Assembly (NCBI GenBank): GCA_000494145.1
Contig: AWOE01000011.1
Location: forward strand, 2,011 to 31,490
DNA from: Candidatus Calditenuaceae archaeon JGI OTU-1
GTDB taxonomy: Archaea > Thermoproteota > Nitrososphaeria_A > Caldarchaeales > Calditenuaceae
DNA length: 29,480 nt
Reading direction: 5' to 3'
The position numbers and the translations under genes are program-made. The notes beneath the pieces are model-generated. The model was not told the DNA's origin. It did not search any database and saw only the letters and a list, made by a program, of their open reading frames with translations. Position 1 is the stretch's first letter. The number at the start of each line of letters is the position of its first letter. This document shows, piece after piece, positions 407-15,511 of the stretch.

Positions 407-496
407 CGGGCCCGCCGGGACTCGAACCCGGGACCTCCGGCTCTCCGCTCGGGCGATCCGCAGGCCGGCGCCCTATCCATGCTAGGCCACGGGCCC
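407..496 (-). tRNA. tRNA-Arg (anticodon GCG) with a 15-nt intron at the canonical 37/38 position
   Basis: The reverse complement of 408-496 folds as a cloverleaf. Acceptor stem GGGCCCG/CGGGCCC; D stem GCCT/GGGC; anticodon stem CCGGC/GCCGG; loop C-U-GCG-G-[intron]-A; variable loop AGGTC; T stem CCGGG/CCCGG with loop TTCGAGT. The intron is ATCGCCCGAGCGGAG (plus-strand coordinates 443-457). Position 407 would be a G discriminator. No CCA is encoded. Confidence 0.9.
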
Positions 497-3695: not shown

Positions 3696-5492
3696 GTGAA
3701 TGGTGTGAGGTCTGCCGAGGAGATCAGGGCGGTAATAGAGGCGGCGCAGGGGCTCAGGGACCTGACGCTCTTGATCAAGGGCGCTGGTGTCCTGAACGTC
3801 TTCACGGGCGAGATCGAGGACCTCAACATCGGGATCTACCTGGAGAGGGTCGTCTACCTAGGCAGGGAGGAACGGAAAGCGGAGAGGGTGATCGAGGTCC
3901 GCGGCGTAGCTGTCCCCGGCTTCATCGACACCCACCTCCACATCGAGAGCAGCATGGTCACGCCCGTGAGGTTCGCCGAGGCCGTACTACCTCACGGAAC
4001 CACCACCGTCGTCGCGGACCCTCACGAGATAGCGAACGTCCTCGGCAAGGAGGGGGTCAGGATGATGCTCGAGAACTCCAGAGGGCTCCCCATGAAGATC
4101 TACTACTTCATGCCGACGTGCGTCCCAGAATCCGACGCTGTCACAGCCGGTGCCGAGATAACGCCGGAGGACATCGAGGAGGCACTGGGATGGGACGGAA
4201 TAGCGGGGCTCGGCGAGGTTATGGACTTCGAGGCGGTCCTGGCGGGGAAGGAGAAGTTCATGCGCATCCTGGAGCTGGGTTGGAGGAAGAACGCCGTGAT
4301 CGACGGACACTGCGTCCTCCTCTCGGGTGCGAGGCTTGGCGCCTACATCGCTGCCGGCCCAGAGGCCGACCATGAGAACTTCACGGTCGATTCGATGCTC
4401 GAGAAGCTGAGGCGCGGCATGTACGTAAAGCTCAGGGGACCCTACATCCTGGACTCGAAGAGGTTCGTTGAGGCGCTGAGGTCAGTACCTGACGGATGGG
4501 ACAGGGTCCTGTTCGTGACCGACGACGTCATGCCCGACACGCTTCTCGAGAAGGGACACATGGACTTCGTGATCAGGTCGATGATCGAGGCGGGGATGGA
4601 CGAGGTCGAGGCGATCAGGAGCGCAACCCTTCGGCCGGCGGAGCACATGAGGATGCGGGAGCTCGGCGCGATCGCACCGGGCAGGCTGGCGGACGTCGTG
4701 GTCCTCAAGGACCTCAGGAGGGTCGAGGTCGACCTCGTGGTCTCGAAAGGCGTCCCCGTCGCGAGGGAGGGACGGATGATCGTCGAGCTCGACGGCAGGC
4801 CCTTCGACAGGAGGGCCTACGGCACGGTGAAGGTGAGGGAGCTGAGGCCTGAGGACTTCGAGTTCGTCGCCCCCATCGATAACGGCAGGATGAGGGTGAG
4901 GGTCGTGGACTTCCCGAGGCCCGAGGAGGTCCAGGGCGACCTCGCGTGGGCCTTCCTCCAGATGATCGTGACCAAGGCGTCGGAGGCCGTCGTCGAGGTG
5001 AGGGGTCGCAGGCCTGTCCTGGGGGAGGTGGCGCTGATGAAGGTGATAGAGCGTCACGGGAAGCACGGACAGAGCGGGATCGGCTTCGTGAGGAACATGC
5101 TGAGGAGGGGCGCTGTGGCGACGACGGTAGCCCACGACTCGCACAACCTAGCGGTGGTAGGGACCGACCCCGTGGACATGTACACCGCTGCGAAAGAGGT
5201 GGTGAAGGCCGGTGGAGGGATGGCTGCGGCTCTCAACGGAGAGGTTCTGGCTTTGATCGAGCTCCCTGTCGCAGGCCTGATGTCCGAGGAGCCGGTGGAG
5301 GTTATGGCGGGGAAGATGAAGGCCTTCAGGGAGGCCCTGAGGAAGCTCGATGCCATAGATCATCCGTACATGCCCCTCGTCTCGCTCATGACCCTCTCCG
5401 TGATCCCGGCCTACAGGATCACCGATAAGGGACTCTTCGACGTCGTGAACCAGCGCTTCCTCGACCCAGTCATCGAGGCATTCCCGTCATGA
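3696..5492 (+). CDS. ade: Adenine deaminase (amidohydrolase superfamily, Ade type)
   Basis: PGFIDTHLHIESSMVTP is the metal-binding HxH motif. Also present are GTTTVVADPHEIANV, a DGH segment and the C-terminal adenine-deaminase domain (ATTVAHDSHNLAVVG). The ORF-track start at 3540 overlaps rps4, so I use in-frame GTG 3696 (VNGVRSAEEIR). GTG 3705 is an alternative. Confidence 0.85.
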   Translation: MNGVRSAEEIRAVIEAAQGLRDLTLLIKGAGVLNVFTGEIEDLNIGIYLERVVYLGREERKAERVIEVRGVAVPGFIDTHLHIESSMVTPVRFAEAVLPHGTTTVVADPHEIANVLGKEGVRMMLENSRGLPMKIYYFMPTCVPESDAVTAGAEITPEDIEEALGWDGIAGLGEVMDFEAVLAGKEKFMRILELGWRKNAVIDGHCVLLSGARLGAYIAAGPEADHENFTVDSMLEKLRRGMYVKLRGPYILDSKRFVEALRSVPDGWDRVLFVTDDVMPDTLLEKGHMDFVIRSMIEAGMDEVEAIRSATLRPAEHMRMRELGAIAPGRLADVVVLKDLRRVEVDLVVSKGVPVAREGRMIVELDGRPFDRRAYGTVKVRELRPEDFEFVAPIDNGRMRVRVVDFPRPEEVQGDLAWAFLQMIVTKASEAVVEVRGRRPVLGEVALMKVIERHGKHGQSGIGFVRNMLRRGAVATTVAHDSHNLAVVGTDPVDMYTAAKEVVKAGGGMAAALNGEVLALIELPVAGLMSEEPVEVMAGKMKAFREALRKLDAIDHPYMPLVSLMTLSVIPAYRITDKGLFDVVNQRFLDPVIEAFPS

Positions 5493-5514: not shown

Positions 5515-6912
5515 GTGACGACCTACGACCTGATCCTGAGGAACTGCAAAGCCGTGGACGTCTCGGGGACGCAGGACTGCGAGATTGCGGTCGACGGCGG
5601 AAAGATCGTCAAGCTCGCGAAGGTCATAGAGGACGGAGCGAACAGGATCATCGACTGCACCGGGAAGCTGGTCATCCCCGGAGCTATAGACGGCCACGTC
5701 CACTTCGAGATGGAGTACGGGCCGGGGATCAGGACCGCTGACGACTTCAGGACCGGGACCGAGAGCGCGGCGGCCGGCGGAGTGACGACGGTGATCGACT
5801 TCGTAACGCCGGTCAGGGGCCAGCCCCTCTCGGATGCCTTCGAGGAGAGGCTGAGGGCGGCGCAGGGGAAGGTCCTCGTCGACTTCGGGCTCCACGTCTG
5901 CGTCCTCGAGGCGAACGCCCAGAGGATCTCCGAACTGAGGCGGCTCGTCGAGGAGAGGGGCGTCGCATCGGTCAAGGTCTTCACGGCCTACAGGTCAAGG
6001 GGTCTGATGATAGACGACGGGTCCCTGATCAGGCTCTCGAGGGAGCTGGCTGCGATGGACGTGCTGATGCTCTGCCACTGCGAGAACGAGGAGATGGTGG
6101 CGAGGGCCACCGAGGAGCTCGCCTTCGAGGGGAGGACCGACGTCGCCCACTACGAGTCCAGCAGGCCCGATTACGCCGAGGCGGAGGCCGTGAACAGGAT
6201 CGGCTTCATCTCTGCGGTCACGGGCGTTGAGTTCCTCGTCGTCCACATCTCCTCGGCCGCTGCGCTCTCCTCCCTCAGGACCTTGAAGAGGTCGGGCGTC
6301 AGGGCGACGGGCGAGACATGTCCCCACTACCTCGTCTTCACGAAGGAGGTCTACAGGAGTGAGAGGGGGCCCCTGTACGTGATGGCACCTCCCCTGAGGA
6401 CCGCGCTGGACAAGGAGGCCCTCTGGAGAGGGATATCCGACGGAACGATCGACGTCGTCGGGAGCGACCACGCTCCCTACCTCGCGGTCCACAAGTTCAG
6501 GTCGAGGGACTTCAGGGAGATACCCGGCGGAGTTCAGGGGACCGAGGTGATCGTGCCGCTGCTCTTCTCGGAGGGCGTCAGGAGGGGCCTGATCGGTCTG
6601 GAGAGGCTGGTCGAGCTGACCTCCTACAACCCGGCGAGGATTTACGGCCTTTCGCACAGGAAGGGGAGAATCGCCGTCGGTTTCGACGCGGACATCGTCG
6701 TCATCGACCCCGAGAAGAGGGTGAGGCTCGGAAGGGAAACGCTCCACAGCTCCCTTGACCACTCGATCTACGAGGGCGTCGAGGTCACCGGCTACCCCGT
6801 CCTCACGGTGGCTCGTGGGGAGGTGGTTGCCGAGGACGGCCAGGTCACCGGAAGGCCGGGAAGGGGCGAGTACCTCCACAGGAGTAGGCAGAAGTCCAAT
6901 CAGCTGAGGTAG
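5515..6912 (+). CDS. Dihydropyrimidinase / D-hydantoinase family cyclic amidohydrolase
   Basis: PGAIDGHVHFEM provides the HxH motif. Also present are AAAGGVTTVIDF, KVFTAY (the carboxylated-lysine region), VHISS, and GSDHAP near the C-terminal third. GTG start at 5515 with GGTGA 7 nt upstream, 22 nt after the ade stop. Confidence 0.85.
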   Translation: MTTYDLILRNCKAVDVSGTQDCEIAVDGGKIVKLAKVIEDGANRIIDCTGKLVIPGAIDGHVHFEMEYGPGIRTADDFRTGTESAAAGGVTTVIDFVTPVRGQPLSDAFEERLRAAQGKVLVDFGLHVCVLEANAQRISELRRLVEERGVASVKVFTAYRSRGLMIDDGSLIRLSRELAAMDVLMLCHCENEEMVARATEELAFEGRTDVAHYESSRPDYAEAEAVNRIGFISAVTGVEFLVVHISSAAALSSLRTLKRSGVRATGETCPHYLVFTKEVYRSERGPLYVMAPPLRTALDKEALWRGISDGTIDVVGSDHAPYLAVHKFRSRDFREIPGGVQGTEVIVPLLFSEGVRRGLIGLERLVELTSYNPARIYGLSHRKGRIAVGFDADIVVIDPEKRVRLGRETLHSSLDHSIYEGVEVTGYPVLTVARGEVVAEDGQVTGRPGRGEYLHRSRQKSNQLR

Positions 6913-8177
6913 CGCTTAAGCTCCTCCACCTCCGGTTTTATCAGAGGTATCTCGCCGACGCTCCCCAGGAGCTTCTCGACCTCCTTCAGGCCCGATCCGG
7001 TGACCAGCACGACGACCCTGTCCGATCTGTCGATAAAGCCCTCGTCGAGGAGCCTCCTCAGCGCCGCGAGGCCCACGGCACCGGAAGGCTCCGCGAAGAC
7101 GCCGGCTTTGGACGCGAGGACCCTGACCGACTCCATTATCTCTTCGTCAGGGACCGCCACGCCTCTGCCTCCAGTCCTCTTGACGCCCTCGATCGCCGCG
7201 TCACCGTCCCAGGGGAAGGGGTCCAGAAGTCCAGACGCGACGGACCTGGGGTTCCTCTCCGGCTCTATCTCCTCGAAAGGCGTCCCCGAGTTGATGGCCC
7301 TCACGAGTTGCTGGTTCCCCTCCGGCTGGACCGGGATCAGCATCGGCAGGTCCTCCTCCCGCAAGAGGCCCAGCTCCGTCAGGTCCCTGAGGCCCTTCCA
7401 GATCCCGGTGATGAAGCACCCTGAACCGGTCGGGACGAGGATCGCGTCGGGCGACTCCCACCCCAGCTGCTCCAGGACCTCGTAGCTGACGGTCTTGGGG
7501 CCCTCGACCTGGTATGGGTTGAAGGGGCCGAAGCTCGGGCAGGGGTACCATCCGAAGGCCCTGACGGCCTTGACCATGAGGTCGACGGTCGGGTCCCTAC
7601 CTTCCTCGACCGACCTCACCCTGAAGAGCTTGGCGCCGAAGGTGACCAGCTGGGCCGCCTTCCCCATCGAGACGTCCTCAGGTACGAAGGCGTAGCACGA
7701 GATGCCGAGGGACGCGCAGTAGGCCGCGAGGGAGGAGGCAGCGTTGCCGCTGGAAGCGGTGACCGCCACTTTCTTCCCCAACTCCGCCGCCTTGGCCACG
7801 CCCACCGCCATCGCCCTGTCCTTGAAGGAGCCGGTCGGGTTGCGGGTCTCGTCCTTGAGGTAGACCGCCTCCGTCCCGAGGAACTCGTTGAGCCTGCTGG
7901 AGCGGAGCATGGGCGTCCCACCCTCCCGGATCGGCGACGCGAACTCCATCGGTGCCGGCATCAGCTCGTGGTACCGCCAGACGCCCATCTCCCTCGGCCT
8001 CGACTCGATGACCCGCCTGCTGAGGACCTCCCTGATCGCATCGTAGTCGTAGATCACGTCGAGCCTTCCGAGGTCCATCCTGCCGCACATCACCGGGCCT
8101 TCCTCCGGCCTGTACCTCGTCCCGCACCTGGAGCAGACCAGCTCCACCACGTAGGACCTCGACCTCGGACCGGGCAT
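6900..8177 (-). CDS. thrC: Threonine synthase family PLP enzyme (ThrC-like, N-terminal zinc ribbon)
   Basis: NPTGSFKDRAM carries the PLP lysine, ASSGNAASSLAAY is present, and CSRCGTRY...C is an N-terminal Cys-ribbon as in archaeal ThrC. The start ATG 8177 is 4 nt after the stop of the upstream SsnA-like gene. Operon context makes a non-threonine role possible. Confidence 0.8.
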   Translation of the reverse strand: MPGPRSRSYVVELVCSRCGTRYRPEEGPVMCGRMDLGRLDVIYDYDAIREVLSRRVIESRPREMGVWRYHELMPAPMEFASPIREGGTPMLRSSRLNEFLGTEAVYLKDETRNPTGSFKDRAMAVGVAKAAELGKKVAVTASSGNAASSLAAYCASLGISCYAFVPEDVSMGKAAQLVTFGAKLFRVRSVEEGRDPTVDLMVKAVRAFGWYPCPSFGPFNPYQVEGPKTVSYEVLEQLGWESPDAILVPTGSGCFITGIWKGLRDLTELGLLREEDLPMLIPVQPEGNQQLVRAINSGTPFEEIEPERNPRSVASGLLDPFPWDGDAAIEGVKRTGGRGVAVPDEEIMESVRVLASKAGVFAEPSGAVGLAALRRLLDEGFIDRSDRVVVLVTGSGLKEVEKLLGSVGEIPLIKPEVEELKRYLS

Positions 8178-8181
8178 CGGA

Positions 8182-9564
8182 TCACCTTCCGAGGCGCAGC
8201 GGCTCCACCGCCTCCGGTGGGGAGGCCCCGAGCCGATCCCAGAGCCTCTCCACGGTCCTCAAAATCCTCCTCTCGGCCTCCTCTACGTCCAGCGTGAGGA
8301 GCATCCCGTCCTCGACGATCTGCCTGCCGCCGACGATCACGTGCCTCACGTCGGCCCCTCCCATGCCGTTGACGATGTACGCGTAAGGGTCACCGGTGGT
8401 CGGGGTGGCCATCAACCTCGGCCTCAGGACCACTACGTCGGCCAGCTTCCCCGGAGCGATCGAGCCGTAGTCCTTCATGCCGTAGGCCCTTGCCGCCTTG
8501 ACCGTCACCATCTCGAGGACCTGCTTCGGGCTCAGGACGGTGGGGTTCCTCCTGCTGACCCTGTGGATCAGGAACGCCGACCTCACGTTCTCGAACATGT
8601 CGAAGACGTAGCCGTCGTTGCCGAGGCAGACGTTGACGCCAGCACCAAGCATCTCCGGGACCGGAGCTACGCCCACAGCGTTCAGCATGTTGCTCATGGG
8701 GTTGTGGGCGACGCTGGCCCCGTGCCTCGCAACGATCGCTATCTCCTTGTCGTTGAGGTGGACGCAGTGGGCGAGGACAGCCCTCCTGCTCAGCGCTCCG
8801 ACCTCCTCCAACCTCTCAACCGTCCTCTTCCCGTACCGCTCGATGTTGTGGTATACGTCGTTAGGCCCCTCGGAGACGTGGATCGTTATCGGGCACCCGA
8901 ACCTCTCGGAGATCTCGACGCCCTTCCTGACGATCTCGTCGGTCACCGTGAAGGAGGCGTGGACGCTGACCATTCCGTAGGCGTTGCCCTGCTGGCTCCT
9001 CAGGTACCTCTCGTTCTCCCTGAGGCCCCTCTCGCCCTCCTCCCGGGACCTCCTCTCGGTCGCCTCGAAGGCTATGAACCCGCGGATCCCGACCTCGTTC
9101 ACGGCCCTCGCTATCGCGTCGAGGGACCCTTCGATGCCGTTAGGAGCTGAGTAGGTGTCGGCGAAGCAGGTGGTGCCGGTGAGGGCCATCTCGATGCATG
9201 CGGCGAGGGCTGTGGCGTAGGCGTCTTCGTTCGTGAGCTTCTCGTCGAGGGGCCACCAGACGCGCTGGAGGATCTGCAGGAAGTCGCTCGGAGGCCTGAT
9301 GTTCAGCAAAGCCCCCCTCAAAGCTATCCCGTAGAGGTGCGTGTGGCCGCAGAACAGACCGGGCAGGACGAACCCTCCCCTCGCGTCTATCACCCTGTCC
9401 GGCTTCCCCTCCCTTTCCACCTCACCGGCCCTCCCCACCTTGGCGATCCGATCTCCCTCGATCAGAACGGCACCGTCCCTGATGATGCCGAGAGCGTCGT
9501 CCATCGTCACCACTGTTCCGCCTTTGACGAGGACCCTCTCCTCTGCCAGCCCCGACCACCTCAC
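8182..9564 (-). CDS. ssnA: SsnA-like amidohydrolase (chlorohydrolase / aminohydrolase family)
   Basis: LPGLFCGHTHLYG provides HxH. The block DFLQILQRVWWPLDEKLTNED aligns, as I recall it, with E. coli SsnA DFISTLKNLWWRLDRALDEES. IHVSEG, HCVHL, SNM and GNDG motifs follow. The GTG start at 9564 overlaps the TGA of the upstream LLM gene (GTGA). Confidence 0.8.
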   Translation of the reverse strand: MRWSGLAEERVLVKGGTVVTMDDALGIIRDGAVLIEGDRIAKVGRAGEVEREGKPDRVIDARGGFVLPGLFCGHTHLYGIALRGALLNIRPPSDFLQILQRVWWPLDEKLTNEDAYATALAACIEMALTGTTCFADTYSAPNGIEGSLDAIARAVNEVGIRGFIAFEATERRSREEGERGLRENERYLRSQQGNAYGMVSVHASFTVTDEIVRKGVEISERFGCPITIHVSEGPNDVYHNIERYGKRTVERLEEVGALSRRAVLAHCVHLNDKEIAIVARHGASVAHNPMSNMLNAVGVAPVPEMLGAGVNVCLGNDGYVFDMFENVRSAFLIHRVSRRNPTVLSPKQVLEMVTVKAARAYGMKDYGSIAPGKLADVVVLRPRLMATPTTGDPYAYIVNGMGGADVRHVIVGGRQIVEDGMLLTLDVEEAERRILRTVERLWDRLGASPPEAVEPLRLGR

Positions 9565-10568
9565 ACGGAGCTGAGGGCCTTTATCGCGTACTCGAGGTCG
9601 CCGCTGAGCAAAAGGATCAGGGGCGCTGTGCAGCCGTGCTTCATGTACTCCATGATCTTCGCCTTGACCTCCGTCGGCGTGCCCGACGCTGTGATCATCC
9701 TGACCACGTCGTCAGGGACGATCTCCATCGCCCTCTCGATCCCTCCGGGCTTCGCGGGCCATCCTCCCATCGCCTTCTGGACCTCCTCGATCAGGTCCTC
9801 GCTGACGCCGCTCGCCTTCATGATGTGCGGCTGCTGGCCGAGGGTCATCGTCACGTGCTTCTTCGCCAGCTTTATCGCCTTCTCCCCGTCCTCGTCGATC
9901 GAGCACGCGATCAGCTGCGGCCTGTCGACGTCCTCGAGCCTCCTCCCTGCCCTCCTGGCTCCCTTCTCGATGTGCTCGAGGGCCTTGTCGTTGTAGGCCG
10001 GCGATACGAGGTAGTTCAGCAGCACCCCGTCAGCTATCTCGCCCGCCAGCTCCATCATCTTGAAGCCTGTGGCGCCTATGTAGATGGGGATGTTCCTCGG
10101 GACCTGACCCTTCCCGTGGAGGACGTCGAGCCTGATGCCCCTGGCCTTCACGAACTTCCCCTCGAAGTTGACCTCCTCCATCCTGAGGAGCCTCCTGATC
10201 ACCTCCACGTACTCCCTCATGCACTGCAGCGGCTCCTTCCTCTCTATGCCCACCTTCCACGCCAGCGGGTCCCACCACGCTCCCAGCCCCAGCATCACCC
10301 TGTTGTCGGCCAGCTCGTCGAGCGTGGCGAAGGTCTGGGCGATCAGCGCCGCGTTCCTCGTCCATGTGTTGATGACCCCGGCCCCGACCTTGATCCTCTC
10401 GGTGACCGTCGCAATCGCGGTCATGGGGACGATCGCGTCCCTCGAGAGCCTCGACTCGGCGACCCAGGCGGACTCGAAACCGTGACGCTCCGCCAGCTGA
10501 GCGTACCTCACCATGTCCCTCACGTGCATGTCCTGAAGGTAGAGACCGAGCCTGGGGATCGACGTCAC
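9561..10568 (-). CDS. Luciferase-like (LLM) flavin/F420-dependent oxidoreductase, Mer-like
   Basis: IPIYIGATGFKMMELAGEIADGVLLN and CSIDEDGEKA align with the methylene-H4MPT reductase (Mer) pattern IPIYMGAQGP..AGE.SDG.L.N / CSIDED as I recall it. I chose GTG 10568 because an A/T box (reverse TTATTTT, 10591-10598) lies about 27 nt upstream. ATG 10601 is an alternative. The ORF-track start 10709 would run into the divergent gene. Confidence 0.85.
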   Translation of the reverse strand: MTSIPRLGLYLQDMHVRDMVRYAQLAERHGFESAWVAESRLSRDAIVPMTAIATVTERIKVGAGVINTWTRNAALIAQTFATLDELADNRVMLGLGAWWDPLAWKVGIERKEPLQCMREYVEVIRRLLRMEEVNFEGKFVKARGIRLDVLHGKGQVPRNIPIYIGATGFKMMELAGEIADGVLLNYLVSPAYNDKALEHIEKGARRAGRRLEDVDRPQLIACSIDEDGEKAIKLAKKHVTMTLGQQPHIMKASGVSEDLIEEVQKAMGGWPAKPGGIERAMEIVPDDVVRMITASGTPTEVKAKIMEYMKHGCTAPLILLLSGDLEYAIKALSSV

Positions 10569-10673
10569 ATGATATAGTGCGAGTCGTAACAAAATAAGCA
10601 TGATCCGGAACTGGTTCAGGGGTTGCCGATGGGTCCGGAAACGATTTATCCCCCCGAAGGATCGATTTGCCGA

Positions 10674-10904
10674 ATGCCGATTCAAGCCTACGTCCTGATC
10701 AGGACCCATCCGGGGAAGGCGAGGAACGTTGCCGAAGCGATAGCCAAGATCGCAGGATGCAGATCGGTCTGCGCGGTGACAGGGAGGTACGACGTGATCG
10801 CCCTCCTCGAGGCAGAGGACCTAAAGGGTCTCGGAGACCTGATACTCCAGAAGGTCCACACGATCGACGGCGTCGAGAGGACCGAGACGGCCGTCGTGGT
10901 CTGA
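10674..10904 (+). CDS. Stand-alone Lrp/AsnC ligand-binding (RAM) domain protein, no HTH
   Basis: MPIQAYVLIRTHPGKARNVAEAIAKIAGCRSVCAVTGRYDVIALLEAEDLKGLGDLILQKVHTIDGVERTETAVVV has the beta-alpha-beta-beta-alpha-beta RAM pattern. At 76 aa it has no room for a DNA-binding domain. It is divergent from the LLM-SsnA-ThrC operon. Confidence 0.75.
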   Translation: MPIQAYVLIRTHPGKARNVAEAIAKIAGCRSVCAVTGRYDVIALLEAEDLKGLGDLILQKVHTIDGVERTETAVVV

Positions 10905-10972: not shown

Positions 10973-12514
10973 ATGGAACCTCCCCGAAGACCGCTCATAT
11001 CGATGAGGGGGATAACCAAGAGGTTCCCGGGCGGGGTGATCGCGAACGATCACGTCGACTTCGACCTGTATCCGGGGGAGGTCCACGCGCTTCTCGGAGA
11101 GAACGGAGCGGGTAAGACGACGCTGATGAACATACTGTACGGGCTGTACACCAAGGACGAGGGGGAGGTCTACGTCGACGGGAAAAGGGTCGAGATCAGG
11201 TCTCCGAAGGACGCGATCAGGCTCGGGATAGGCATGGTCCACCAGCAGTTCAAGCTCATCCCGCGCCACACGGTCCTCGAGAACGTCGTCCTCGGCCTGA
11301 GGGAGGCCGGCTTCGTCCTCAACTACAGGAGCCTCAGGGAGATGCTCGTCTCGACCATCAGGGAGTACGGCTGGAACCTCGACCCGGACGCGTACGTATG
11401 GCAGCTGACGGCCTCCCAGAAGCAGCAGGTCGAGATCCTGAAGCTCCTCGTGAGGAAGGCGCGGGTGCTGATACTGGACGAGCCGACGTCTATCCTGACG
11501 CCGCAGGAGACTACGCAGCTCTTCGAGAGCATCCGGTCGATGGCCGCGCAGGGAATGGGGGTCGTCCTGGTCACGCACAAGCTCGAGGAGGTGATGCGGG
11601 TCTGCGACAGGGTGACGGTGATGAGAAGAGGAAGGGTCGTTGCGGTGAGGAGGAGGGAGGAGCTGAACGCGGAGGAGCTGGTGACGCTGATGGTAGGCCG
11701 GAGCATAGACCAGACGTACCGCGTCACCGTTCGACCACGGGATGAGAGGGTCCTCGAGGTGAGGAACCTGAGGGTCCTCGACGACAGGGGGGCCGTGGCG
11801 GTCAAGGACGTGAGCTTCCACGTCATGAAGGGAGAGGTCTTCGGGATTGCGGGGGTCTCCGGGAACGGGCAGGACGAGCTCCTCGAGGCAATTTACGGCC
11901 TCAGGAAGGCGGTCTCTGGCAAAGTCTATCTCAACGGAAGGGACGTCACGAACCTCCCGACGTGGGAGCTGGTGAAGCAGGGTGTGGCGATGATCGTGCC
12001 AGAGGCGGTGAAGGGGGTCGGTCTCGGCCTCACGGTCGCCGAGAACCTCCTGCTGAAGTGCTACCGTTACGAGCCCTTCTCGAGGTGGGGCATCCTGAAG
12101 AGGAAGCTGATGGAGGAGTCGGCGAAGGAGCTGGTCGAGCAGCTCAAGATCGTCACGAGGTCCGTCACCGCCAGGGCCTCCACCCTCTCCGGCGGGAACC
12201 TCCAACGCCTCATCATCGCTCGGGAGCTCTTCGCGAACCCTAGCCGTCGGCTCCCGGTCCTGCTGCTCGCATCGCACCCCACTAAAGGCCTCGACGTGGC
12301 CGCCACCGACTACGTGAGGAGGCTGATACTCGGCGTGAGGGACTCGGGCGCTGGGGTCATCCTCCTCTCGGACGACCTCGAGGAGCTGATAGCGCTCAGC
12401 GACAGGATAGGCGTGATGTACAAGGGCGAACTGCTCGCGGTGCTGGAGAAGGAGCGGGCGGAGATCGAGACGATAGGCATGCTGATGATGGGCGTAAGGC
12501 CTGGCGGCCCCTAG
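10973..12514 (+). CDS. ABC transporter ATP-binding protein with duplicated ATPase domains (CUT2 family, nucleoside/Bmp-type motifs)
   Basis: Walker A is GENGAGKTT, GIGMVHQQFKL is typical of NupO/RnsA-like ATPases, and Walker B is LILDEPT. The second half carries GVSGNGQ, LSGGNLQR and LLSDDLEE. I use ATG 10973 (MEPPRRPLISMRGITKRFPG) rather than the TTG at 10946. An A/T box lies at 10933-10941. Confidence 0.9.
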   Translation: MEPPRRPLISMRGITKRFPGGVIANDHVDFDLYPGEVHALLGENGAGKTTLMNILYGLYTKDEGEVYVDGKRVEIRSPKDAIRLGIGMVHQQFKLIPRHTVLENVVLGLREAGFVLNYRSLREMLVSTIREYGWNLDPDAYVWQLTASQKQQVEILKLLVRKARVLILDEPTSILTPQETTQLFESIRSMAAQGMGVVLVTHKLEEVMRVCDRVTVMRRGRVVAVRRREELNAEELVTLMVGRSIDQTYRVTVRPRDERVLEVRNLRVLDDRGAVAVKDVSFHVMKGEVFGIAGVSGNGQDELLEAIYGLRKAVSGKVYLNGRDVTNLPTWELVKQGVAMIVPEAVKGVGLGLTVAENLLLKCYRYEPFSRWGILKRKLMEESAKELVEQLKIVTRSVTARASTLSGGNLQRLIIARELFANPSRRLPVLLLASHPTKGLDVAATDYVRRLILGVRDSGAGVILLSDDLEELIALSDRIGVMYKGELLAVLEKERAEIETIGMLMMGVRPGGP

Positions 12515-13563
12515 CCCATCGTCATCACCATCACGGCCTTCTGGACGTGGAGCCTGTTCTCGGCCTGCTCGAAGTAGAGCGAGTACCTCGGGTTGTCGAT
12601 GACGTCGTCGGTGACCTCCTGCCCCCTGTCAGCGGGACCGCAGTGCATGTACTTCCCGTTGTTGGTCAGGTCCATCAGCTCCTGCGTGCATATCCAGTGC
12701 TTGAACTTGTTCTGGTACTCGACCGCTCCCTCCTTGTCGACCTTGCTGTTGTACGGTGGGAAGAAGCCCTTGGGCGACCAGGCCTTCGGGTAGACGAAGT
12801 CCGCGCCCTCGAAGGCCTCCTTCATGTCGTGAACGATCTCGAAGCTTCCCCCGTACCTGTCGGCGTTCTCTCTGGCCGCCCTTATCACGTGGTCCTCGAG
12901 CTCGAAGCCCGGCGGGTGGGCGAGGACGACGTCCATCCCGAACATCGTCCCGATCAGGACGCACGACTGCGGCACCGCGAGGGGCTTCAGCCCTCCGGAG
13001 TAGGCGTAGGAGACGACGAACTTCTTCCCCTTTGGGTTAGGGGTCACATCGGTTATCGCCATGATGTCGGCCAGCGCCTGGAACGGATGGTAGATGTCGT
13101 CCTCCATGTTCAGGACCGGGACCGTGCTCCACCTGGCGAACTCCTGGATCACCCTGTGGCCGCGGCCGATGTGCCACTTGGCCGCGTCACCGTAGATCCT
13201 GATGGCGATCGCGTCGCCGTACCTGCTCAGGACCCTCGCGACGTCCGCAATCGACTCGGTCTGGTATGGTATCATGTCCTCCGGCAAGGTCGGCGTGTAG
13301 ACGTCCTGAGGGCTGAGGAAGTGGGCGTGGCCGCCTAGCTGGAAGATCCCCGCCTCGAAGGAGTTCCTCGTCCTTAGGCTTCTATTGTAGAAGAGCATGA
13401 AGAGCGTCTTGCCCTGCAGGTACGGCGTCGGGATCCTCGCCCTGAACTTGCTCCTGAGGTCCCTCGCGGCCTCCAGGACCTGCTCGATCTCCTCCCGTGT
13501 GAAGTCGTTTGTGTTCAGGAAATGCCTGCCCCTCAGGAGCCCCGCGTATTTGGGGAGATCCAT
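12511..13563 (-). CDS. ygeW: YgeW-type (knotted) carbamoyltransferase
   Basis: SLRTR is the carbamoyl-phosphate motif and HPFQALAD is present. The long block KGKKFVVSYAYSGGLKPLAVPQSCVLIGTMFGMDVVLAHPPGFEL...GGSFEIVHDMKEAFEGADFVYPKAWSP parallels E. coli YgeW as I recall it (KGKKIAMTWAYSPSYGKPLSVPQG...FGMDVTLAHPEGYDL...GGSFRQVTSMEEAFKDADIVYPKSWAP). MHCGPA matches MHCLPA. An A/T box at 13589-13598 lies about 31 nt upstream of ATG 13563. Confidence 0.85.
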   Translation of the reverse strand: MDLPKYAGLLRGRHFLNTNDFTREEIEQVLEAARDLRSKFRARIPTPYLQGKTLFMLFYNRSLRTRNSFEAGIFQLGGHAHFLSPQDVYTPTLPEDMIPYQTESIADVARVLSRYGDAIAIRIYGDAAKWHIGRGHRVIQEFARWSTVPVLNMEDDIYHPFQALADIMAITDVTPNPKGKKFVVSYAYSGGLKPLAVPQSCVLIGTMFGMDVVLAHPPGFELEDHVIRAARENADRYGGSFEIVHDMKEAFEGADFVYPKAWSPKGFFPPYNSKVDKEGAVEYQNKFKHWICTQELMDLTNNGKYMHCGPADRGQEVTDDVIDNPRYSLYFEQAENRLHVQKAVMVMTMG

Positions 13564-15354: not shown

Positions 15355-15474
15355 GCCCCGGAGAGCTTCGCAGCGGATATTATACGTAGTCTTGCGAAAC
15401 GCTCTTGGAACTGAATGAGTTTGGCCGTGGACGCAGAACCGGTGTACGGAACGATGCTTTGCCCGTCATATATA

Positions 15475-15494
15475 AGCAGTCTATTTATACTGCT
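15475..15494 (+). promoter_or_regulatory. Islet promoter: TATA-like CTATTTAT framed by a 6-bp inverted repeat AGCAGT/ACTGCT; a second A/T box CATATATAAG lies at 15467-15476
   Basis: Read directly. The TATA-like centre (about 15485) is 27 nt upstream of GTG 15512. GGGAG at 15501-15505 lies 6 nt upstream of that GTG. Confidence 0.4.
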
Positions 15495-15511
15495 GATTAA
15501 GGGAGTAGTTA

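Follow-up and report, generated by a model that had tools for sequence, protein, structure and literature searches.

A candidate archaeal operon for reductive purine-ring catabolism with a proposed lyase of the threonine synthase family

The reductive pathway for uric acid via 2,8-dioxopurine (yanthine) described in 2025 is a bacterial system (PMC12507026; bioRxiv 10.1101/2025.04.24.650524), encoded in Escherichia coli by xdhD-ygfM, ygfK, ssnA and hyuA, as well as ygeW, yqeA, ygeY and ygeX, and also by a gene cluster of Clostridium sporogenes (PMC12507026). Here, we report on a stretch of 29,480 nt (hereafter the window) from Candidatus Calditenuaceae archaeon JGI OTU-1 (contig AWOE01000011.1, positions 2,011-31,490), in which an LLM-class (luciferase-like) oxidoreductase, an SsnA-like amidohydrolase and a pyridoxal 5′-phosphate (PLP) enzyme resembling threonine synthase (ThrC) are encoded by three closely spaced genes. 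Comparison with relatives makes it very probable that the cluster containing these genes is devoted to a reductive purine-ring catabolism of the bacterial kind. On balance, we also favour the fuller proposal that the trio is the central operon in an archaeal form of such a cluster, in which a ThrC-family lyase replaces YgeX.

In the bacterial pathway, urate is reduced to 2,8-dioxopurine by XdhD, and this compound is dearomatised by YgfK, or by UacX in Clostridioides difficile. Both rings are then opened by SsnA and HyuA to give 2,3-diureidopropionate, the ureido groups are removed by YgeW with YqeA, and by YgeY, and 2,3-diaminopropionate is finally converted to pyruvate and ammonia by YgeX (PMC12507026). 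Reduction by YgfK was detectable only if coupled to SsnA, probably since it is unfavourable, and the corresponding genes co-localise (PMC12507026, section 7). The gap between ygfK and ssnA in E. coli is 2 nt. UacX, of family PF01180, is PydA-like and ferredoxin-linked, and reductases of this DHO_dh/Fer4 type (PydA) also reduce uracil (PMC12507026). In SsnA clusters of Chloroflexota, a PF00296 enzyme of the “F420-dependent luciferase family” replaces YgfK/UacX, and has been proposed to be an F420-dependent yanthine reductase (PMC12507026, section 9). An earlier sequence-only reading of the window was aware of no characterised pathway with exactly such a trio. This has to be corrected, as an analogous trio exists in YgfK or UacX, then SsnA, then YgeX. 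The order of events which that reading envisaged, i.e. reduction of a heterocycle, hydrolytic ring opening and PLP-dependent elimination, follows the same logic as the bacterial reductive pathway (PMC12507026). In the literature searched, neither the pathway itself was reported from archaea, nor were doubled carbamoyltransferases or an enzyme of the ThrC family substituting for YgeX.

The closest protein matches of the window are from metagenome-assembled genomes of Candidatus Calditenuis (84-95% identity; Caldarchaeales, phylum Nitrososphaerota). The window has a G+C content of about 63% and encodes the archaeal markers ribosomal protein S4, both subunits (alpha and beta) of phenylalanyl-tRNA synthetase (PheRS) and a DnaG-type Toprim protein. 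The trio, its junctions and its putative promoter are arranged as follows.

9561..10568, minus strand: LLM-class (luciferase-like) oxidoreductase, 335 aa from GTG 10568, first gene of the operon
8182..9564, minus strand: SsnA-like amidohydrolase, 460 aa, PF01979
6900..8177, minus strand: ThrC-like PLP enzyme, 425 aa, PF00291, with an N-terminal Cys-rich, zinc-ribbon-like segment
9547..9570, minus strand: LLM/SsnA junction, LLM stop TGA overlapping a Shine-Dalgarno (SD)-like GAGGTG
8175..8192, minus strand: SsnA/ThrC-like junction, SD-like AGGTGA containing the SsnA stop, 4 nt, ATG 8177
10569..10600, minus strand: putative archaeal promoter of the operon, TATA-like A/T-rich TTATTTT at 10597-10591, read from the sequence

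The three minus-strand genes had been described as nearly abutting, and all the open reading frames are indeed present, with one 4-nt overlap and one 4-nt gap. At the LLM/SsnA junction, ‘...TCC GTG TGA’ overlaps ‘GTG AGG...’ as GTGA (9561-9564, 4 nt). The letters thus read as previously claimed, but the assignment of the SsnA start to GTG 9564 is insecure, and CTG 9549 may be an alternative. In three Calditenuaceae loci (L011, L013 and L059; loci of relatives are numbered with the prefix L), SsnA starts with an ATG located 5-12 nt past a conserved ‘TGA-GGTG’, in which the stop overlaps the SD-like GAGGTG, and the window codon aligned with these orthologous ATG starts is CTG (9549-9547). In the closest relative, L023, an in-frame TGA stands right behind the GTG equivalent to GTG 9564 of the window (L023 5784-5792). 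Either a near-cognate CTG start may be used for SsnA, or the window and L023 may differ in their starts; the predicted spacing between LLM and SsnA lies between −4 and +11 nt, and coupling would hold with either start. At the SsnA/ThrC-like junction, TGA (8182-8184) is followed by TCCG (8178-8181) and then by ATG 8177, so that the 4-nt spacer is exactly as first read.

Both stop codons are embedded in SD-like GGTGA/GAGGTG strings. Among the 21 non-redundant LLM-carrying loci, 17 have a co-directional SsnA-like gene directly downstream of LLM, and a contiguous LLM-SsnA-ThrC-like trio is found in every sufficiently long Calditenuaceae locus (L001/L011, L013, L023 and L059; L012 is cut). A short junction by itself is weak evidence in a compact archaeal genome; the conserved adjacency exceeds chance. 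Together, the short spacing, the SD-like motifs on the stop codons and the conserved adjacency support co-transcription of the trio as one unit, as had been suggested from the spacing. By direct reading of the sequence, some 26 nt separate the centre of TTATTTT from the downstream GTG start of LLM, a distance that suggests an operon promoter and a leaderless transcript.

The LLM protein (PF00296, 240.2 bits) has as its 15 best NCBIfam families exclusively F420-dependent ones, its eight best PDB sequence matches are all F420 enzymes, and among solved structures it comes nearest to F420-dependent Mer (169 bits) and to FGD. To judge from these matches, it is probably F420H2-dependent. A role as Mer in one-carbon metabolism was rejected, as the protein scores far below the cut-offs of the Mer models (TIGR03555, 205.6 for a cut-off of 348.7; NF002619, 204 for 276) and has neighbours of purine type. 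Identity is 81% to the Caldarchaeum orthologue and 60-72% in other lineages. Two loci with an LLM protein of 61% identity (L009 and L010) were considered as a link to Chloroflexota, an idea that was dropped because the ThrC-like protein of L010 groups with Bathyarchaeia. No bacterial members of the ThrC-like subfamily were found among the best 80 genome matches.

The SsnA-like protein matches PF01979 at 198 bits and features the HxH metal motif as CGHTHLYG. Its two best NCBIfam families are both SsnA (NF005540, 353.3 for a cut-off of 444; TIGR03314, 326 for 455.5), and its alignment with E. coli SsnA gives 30% identity over 430 aa (E 3e-52). Among solved structures, deaminases of methylthioadenosine/S-adenosylhomocysteine (MTA/SAH) and of 8-oxoguanine come closest to it. 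We propose that the LLM enzyme acts as a dearomatising purine-ring reductase, i.e. as a functional analogue of YgfK/UacX, and that the SsnA-like enzyme is a ring-opening hydrolase acting on the reduced purine.

The ThrC-like protein (PF00291, 250.9 bits) belongs to a family that databases name threonine synthase. The top 20 PDB matches obtained by Foldseek with its AlphaFold2 model (predicted local distance difference test score, 88.6) are all threonine synthases, with 2zsj, 2d1f, 6nmx, 3aey and 2c2b leading and 2zsj matched at E 3.5e-28 with a template modelling score of 0.84 normalised to the target. This search confirms the ThrC fold, and cannot discriminate function. The protein was aligned by HMMER with five solved threonine synthases (2zsj, 2d1f, 6cgq, 1uim and 1e5x), and 84 members of the ThrC-like family were aligned by MAFFT with four of these. 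In the latter alignment, Lys119 of the window protein aligns with Lys61, the PLP lysine of the SFKDR motif, and lysine is present in 84/84 members. Differences at other sites are listed below in Thermus thermophilus numbering.

Thr88 (in S-T-G-N-T): Thr in solved threonine synthases, Ala in 84/84 ThrC-like family members
Asn154: Asn in solved threonine synthases, Gly in 84/84
Ser155: Ser in solved threonine synthases, Pro in 83/84
Arg160 (in N-S-x-N-P-x-R-x-E-G-Q-K-T): Arg in solved threonine synthases, Gln in 84/84
Ile243: Ile in solved threonine synthases, Asp in 84/84

Thr88, Asn154, Ser155 and Arg160, which we take to be the residues holding the phosphate of O-phosphohomoserine in the T. 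thermophilus enzyme, are invariant in the four realigned solved enzymes and are also conserved in the Arabidopsis enzyme in the HMMER alignment. The aspartate at position 243 sits in an invariant DP(F/Y)PWDGD loop that is new to the ThrC-like family. Loss of this Arg/Asn/Ser/Thr pocket and gain of an acidic loop would argue against a phosphate-ester substrate, and would fit a cationic or hydrogen-bond-donor leaving group, such as an amino or ureido group. The subfamily appears to be recognisable by the motifs ASSGNAA, PSFGPFNPYQxEGPK and DP(F/Y)PWDGD, and to be widespread in TACK archaea. Identity to YgeX is about 20% (E 1e-7). Cysteate synthase was rejected as an assignment, with a score of 56.6 against a cut-off of 324.9 for TIGR03844. 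A Bathyarchaeia locus, L078, encodes the ThrC-like protein together with an M20 peptidase of N-carbamoyl-amino-acid-amidohydrolase type and a second, divergent ThrC paralogue (1609-2907, 6441-7703, 9561-10796). This second paralogue also lacks the canonical N-S...R motif, and reads ‘YYCGFQVNPFASEGSKT’.

Relatives were sought with two signature peptides of the ThrC-like family, taking one genome per species. This yielded 230 relatives, of which the best 80 loci were analysed, and partner genes were detected in these by tblastn with reference proteins. The 80 loci come from Caldarchaeales, other Nitrososphaeria, Conexivisphaerales, Bathyarchaeia, Hecatella, Methanomethylicota, Methanodesulfokora, Baldrarchaeota and Desulfurococcales. 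Synteny in relatives, which the sequence-only reading had suggested as a check on the trio, holds at cluster level, with one or more pathway partners lying within 10 kb of the ThrC-like gene in 66/80 loci, and within 300 nt in 46/80. Nine of the 14 partnerless loci are contigs shorter than 10 kb. Partners found within 10 kb of the ThrC-like gene were the following.

Carbamoyltransferase (OTCase family): 53/80 loci, with two or more in 29
Carbamate kinase: 32/80 loci; 47% identity to E. coli YqeA
CysK-like PLP enzyme: 31/80 loci
Xanthine dehydrogenase (XDH) large subunit: 28/80 loci (small subunit, 26/80); 33% and 30% identity to E. coli XdhA and XdhD, respectively
SsnA-like amidohydrolase: 26-34 of 80 loci
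Adenine-deaminase-like amidohydrolase: 20/80 loci
LLM-class oxidoreductase: 16/80 loci
DHO_dh reductase: 12/80 loci

In relatives, the LLM-SsnA pair is surrounded by genes for the Mo, FAD and 2Fe-2S subunits of XDH-family enzymes, for a single carbamoyltransferase or two of them, for carbamate kinase (in L002, arcC at 431 bits), and for hydantoinase-like and adenine-deaminase-like amidohydrolases. This set of genes corresponds to that of the bacterial reductive uric-acid pathway. Five loci (L032, L033, L048, L009 and L010) carry two different sets of XDH-family subunits, as E. coli does with XdhABC and XdhD/YgfM. Small ThiS-like genes are found between the XDH-family subunit genes of L009 and L010.

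A different arrangement occurs in Desulfurococcales, with the gene order carbamoyltransferase, carbamoyltransferase, carbamate kinase, SsnA-like, a DHO_dh reductase with two [4Fe-4S] modules (UacX/PydA-type, PF01180), and ThrC-like. The SsnA-like gene adjoins the DHO_dh/Fer4 reductase gene in eight Desulfurococcales loci. The reductase has thus been swapped for a non-homologous one in Desulfurococcales, with SsnA and the ThrC-like gene retained. Genes of the IF-2B family and for PfkB come after the operon in Desulfurococcales. Directly past the ThrC-like gene of one such locus (L087, 11330-15415) follow genes for a metallo-beta-lactamase-fold protein, two IF-2B-family (ribose-1,5-bisphosphate-isomerase-like) proteins and a PfkB kinase, an order which hints at a link between base catabolism and the archaeal pentose-bisphosphate nucleoside route. 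A widespread arrangement in Bathyarchaeia adds a Bmp-type nucleoside ABC transporter and has a 4-nt overlap between its CysK-like and ThrC-like genes. The contexts in both Bathyarchaeia and Desulfurococcales point to nucleoside/base catabolism. The CysK-like gene (TIGR01139, 362 bits) is translationally coupled to carbamoyltransferase and ThrC-like genes in most relatives (e.g. L002 7390-12219, L004 6284-9580, L007 17455-20846 and L092 8952-11251), and is absent from the clusters of Calditenuaceae and Desulfurococcales.

In a wider set of about 94 loci, no homologues of YgeX or YgfK were detected, and a YgeY homologue in two only. Neither homoserine kinase nor homoserine dehydrogenase was detected in these loci by tblastn with E. 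coli ThrB and a homoserine-dehydrogenase domain, a search that a divergent archaeal ThrB could escape. No canonical thrC was found in the fetched flanks, which cover about 20 kb per genome and do not settle whether a second thrC exists elsewhere. An aspartate kinase gene neighbours the ThrC-like gene in Calditenuis only, at a distance of 4.5 kb in the window.

Four residues invariant in the solved threonine synthases are replaced and the conserved neighbours are catabolic; the earlier suggestion that the ThrC-like protein does not serve threonine biosynthesis is therefore supported on two independent grounds, by the replacements at four positions in 83-84 of 84 members and by the neighbourhoods across archaeal classes. 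We consider it likely that the protein is an enzyme of the pathway, not a housekeeping threonine synthase. Its reaction can be specified only tentatively as the conversion of diaminopropionate, or ureido-alanine, to pyruvate. In the same tentative vein, the ThrC-like protein might be the founding member of a ThrC-derived lyase subfamily, with an acidic pocket in place of the phosphate pocket, that cleaves 2,3-diaminopropionate/ureido-alanine within an energy-conserving archaeal pathway of purine catabolism.

Further genes of the cluster in the window are as follows.

3705..5492, plus strand: adenine-deaminase-like amidohydrolase, PF13382 and PF01979, 22 nt upstream of the hydantoinase gene and co-directional with it
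5515..6912, plus strand: dihydropyrimidinase/hydantoinase (HyuA-like), TIGR02033, convergent with the trio
10674..10904, plus strand: stand-alone Lrp/AsnC ligand-binding (RAM) domain protein, 76 aa, PF01037 at 56.8 bits
10946..12514, plus strand: ABC-transporter ATPase with two ABC_tran domains, PF00005 twice
12511..13563, minus strand: carbamoyltransferase of the N-acetylornithine-carbamoyltransferase/YgeW-like branch, PF02729 and PF00185

The nine-gene arrangement of the window is also found in Candidatus Calditenuis fumarioli (L001) and other Calditenuaceae. The hydantoinase scores 422 bits with TIGR02033 (D-hydantoinase), over the cut-off of 393.25, shows 35% identity to HyuA of E. coli across 456 aa, and has its gene in the same position in L001, L012, L013, L023 and L059. 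The hydantoinase and ThrC-like genes share 13 nt at their 3′ ends (6900-6912), leaving no room for a terminator between the converging operons. The adenine-deaminase-like protein, whose start was set by comparison with L001, reaches 448.9 with TIGR01178, under the cut-off of 472.5; its homologues adjoin the LLM gene in Caldarchaeum and Bathyarchaeia-type loci.

The carbamoyltransferase just exceeds the cut-off for N-acetylornithine carbamoyltransferase (NF003384, 292 for 288), scores 160 with the YgeW model (cut-off 453) and is 33.5% identical to E. coli YgeW. Arginine biosynthesis was judged an unlikely role, as pairs of such paralogues occur with carbamate kinase and SsnA-like genes; we propose that the enzyme phosphorolyses a ureido group to carbamoyl phosphate. 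The ABC ATPase is of the type that partners Bmp-family nucleoside-binding proteins, and is 47% identical to the ATPase of the Bmp/BPD_transp_2 transporter beside the Bathyarchaeia cluster. In the window it has neither a permease nor a binding protein beside it; related clusters have the full transporter. The Lrp/AsnC-domain protein, a possible regulator or sensor, has no DNA-binding domain and is also 76 aa long in L001. Its gene is divergent from that for LLM and has the same position in L013, L023 and L059.

The pathway proposed here draws its substrate, its use of F420, its order of steps and the ThrC-like reaction by analogy with the bacterial one, and can be outlined as follows. An XDH-family Mo-hydroxylase, encoded in the cluster of relatives and not in the window, would supply an oxopurine, which the LLM enzyme would dearomatise with F420H2 in the place of YgfK of E. 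coli or UacX of C. difficile. The coupled SsnA-like amidohydrolase would hydrolyse the reduced ring at once, thereby pulling the unfavourable reduction forward, and the hydantoinase would open the second ring to give 2,3-diureidopropionate. Carbamoyltransferases, of which there is one in the window and two in most relatives, would then phosphorolyse the ureido groups, and the carbamoyl phosphate formed would yield ATP through carbamate kinase. The last, PLP-dependent step would fall to the ThrC-like enzyme in the role of YgeX, most likely with 2,3-diaminopropionate or ureido-alanine giving pyruvate and ammonia.

Several observations weigh against this proposal. In the window there is no XDH, no carbamate kinase, no second carbamoyltransferase and no CysK-like gene such as most relatives have, so that the Calditenuis pathway either is incomplete there or has dispersed genes. 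None of the SsnA-like, Mer-like and YgeW-like proteins reaches the curated equivalog cut-offs, and another oxopurine, or some other ureide, could be the substrate. With TIGR00260 (thrC), the ThrC-like protein exceeds the cut-off (186.4 for 167.1) and it is 36-43% identical to Aquifex ThrC, the phosphate-holding role of its four replaced positions is our presumption, and in L038, L057 and L081 the ThrC-like gene stands without a pathway neighbour in full 10-kb flanks. Finally, the CysK-like enzyme of relatives could be the actual substitute for YgeX.

These points can be arranged into three alternatives. The one that survives best, which we nevertheless hold to be unlikely, is that of a real catabolic pathway for another N-heterocycle or ureide, such as a purine entered through adenine deaminase, a pyrimidine or a hydantoin, with the ThrC-like enzyme acting on a different amino acid. 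A four-carbon, gamma-substituted amino acid would fit the native beta,gamma-elimination chemistry of ThrC, and an adenine-deaminase-like neighbour is present in 20/80 loci, as against XDH-family subunits in 28/80 clusters, sometimes as two sets as in E. coli. No XDH was found in the window or near the Desulfurococcales operons, and the reductases of the latter are of the DHO_dh/Fer4 type that also reduces uracil (PydA; PMC12507026). However, two carbamoyltransferases together with carbamate kinase fit the diureido intermediate of a purine route, not that of a pyrimidine route. The SsnA-like protein, only 30% identical to E. coli SsnA, under the cut-offs and structurally nearest to MTA/SAH and 8-oxoguanine deaminases, leaves latitude as to its substrate, but SsnA models remain its top-scoring families.

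Less probable still, to the point of being quite doubtful, is that the ThrC-like protein is an ordinary threonine synthase merely co-transcribed in a purine/ureide operon, with only LLM and SsnA functionally linked. Besides passing TIGR00260, the protein comes within 0.1 bit of the NF006050 cut-off (302.9 for 303; other ThrC equivalogs are far under their cut-offs), its best matches, by sequence and by fold alike, are to threonine synthases throughout, and the family is about 50-60% identical across classes, as housekeeping enzymes are. Against this stands the replacement, in 83-84 of 84 members, of four positions that are invariant in the solved enzymes. Non-purine surroundings in L005/L038, L057 and L081 have to be set against the association with genes for carbamoyltransferase, carbamate kinase, SsnA-like enzymes and XDH, which outlasts extensive rearrangement and a reductase swap in at least five archaeal lineages. 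Likewise, the aspartate kinase gene 4.5 kb off in the window is a neighbour in Calditenuis only, and neither homoserine kinase nor homoserine dehydrogenase was detected in about 94 loci. A last alternative, that the ThrC-like enzyme belongs to the pathway without being the YgeX analogue, with the CysK-like enzyme performing the diaminopropionate step and the ThrC-like enzyme a racemisation or a beta-replacement/elimination on ureido-alanine, appears very improbable: the CysK-like gene, present in 31/80 loci, does lie directly upstream of or overlapping the ThrC-like gene in many of them, coupled to carbamoyltransferase, and a single step would hardly need two PLP enzymes, but the clusters of Calditenuaceae and Desulfurococcales keep the ThrC-like gene and have no CysK-like one, so that no PLP enzyme other than the ThrC-like one is shared by all variants.

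The bacterial reductive urate pathway was worked out between 2023 and 2025 in gut bacteria only. Reductive purine-ring catabolism by the proposed cluster in archaea of hot springs and sediments, if true, would make this a general and ancient route to ATP and nitrogen from purines, not one special to the gut. The archaeal version would then use an F420- or ferredoxin-type reductase and, for each purine ring, would give as many as two carbamoyl phosphates and thereby two ATP, and it would also connect to archaeal nucleoside breakdown. Database matches to the ThrC-like family number 2,693 (E ≤ 1e-20) and 5,054 (E ≤ 1e-30). Thousands of archaeal proteins called threonine synthase are probably misannotated, and reconstructions of threonine synthesis based on them may be wrong.

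Two features of the window lie outside the cluster. A low-G+C island at 15400-17050 (43-50%, versus about 63% elsewhere) is located between an OsmC-like gene and pheS, and contains genes for an OLD/GajA/AbiL-like AAA ATPase (15512-16552) and a 149-aa protein (16560-17009). In Candidatus Calditenuis fumarioli, no more than about 220 nt lie between the OsmC-like gene and those for PheRS. The island looks like a recently inserted two-gene module of defence type. In addition, ARAGORN reports a 90-nt tRNA at 407-496 (minus strand) whose four-base ‘anticodon’ (cgga) is undetermined; it is probably an archaeal tRNA with an intron, mis-parsed under bacterial settings.

Compared with class I ThrC (EC 4.2.3.1; T. 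thermophilus, Mycobacterium tuberculosis, Bacillus subtilis and Aquifex aeolicus), the ThrC-like family shares the fold, the SFKDR lysine motif and the Ser-x-Gly-Asn loop, and differs by its Ala/Gly/Pro/Gln substitutions, its DP(F/Y)PWDGD loop, its N-terminal Cys-rich extension and its catabolic context. The ThrC-derived cysteate synthase of Methanosarcinales provides a precedent for recruitment of an archaeal ThrC homologue to another reaction, although in a context of coenzyme M to which that of the ThrC-like gene is unrelated; the ThrC-like enzyme is a candidate second case of ThrC recruited to new chemistry. With YgeX (2,3-diaminopropionate ammonia-lyase) it shares an equivalent proposed position in the pathway, as well as fold type II and PF00291, yet it belongs to another subfamily.

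As to the reductase variants, the Chloroflexota clusters feature a PF00296 enzyme beside SsnA in place of YgfK/UacX, just as the window does. However, that variant is known from colouring of bacterial gene neighbourhoods only, in a paper naming neither archaea nor a ThrC-type PLP enzyme (PMC12507026). The LLM-SsnA pair of the window can be viewed as its archaeal counterpart by analogy. The UacX/UacY variant of C. difficile is mirrored by the Desulfurococcales relatives, which carry a DHO_dh reductase with two [4Fe-4S] modules beside the SsnA-like gene. It differs from the window, which uses LLM, and from the archaeal clusters in general, which have phosphorolytic carbamoyltransferases and carbamate kinase instead of the hydrolytic UacY.

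The bacterial reductive urate pathway and the archaeal cluster have in common a Mo-hydroxylase (in relatives), an SsnA-linked reductase, a hydantoinase, a carbamoyltransferase, carbamate kinase (in relatives) and a fold-type-II PLP enzyme, as well as the order of reductase then SsnA with a gap of few nucleotides, as in E. coli. They differ in that the reductase of the window is a PF00296 LLM enzyme and not YgfK, that archaeal relatives have two carbamoyltransferase paralogues instead of YgeW and YgeY, that the archaeal PLP enzyme is of the ThrC family and 20% identical to YgeX, and that the hosts are archaea, many of them thermophilic, with enzymes only 30-47% identical to those of E. coli. 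Without YgfK, YgeX and mostly without YgeY, the archaeal cluster is not a strict member of the 2,8-dioxopurine pathway; it works like it.

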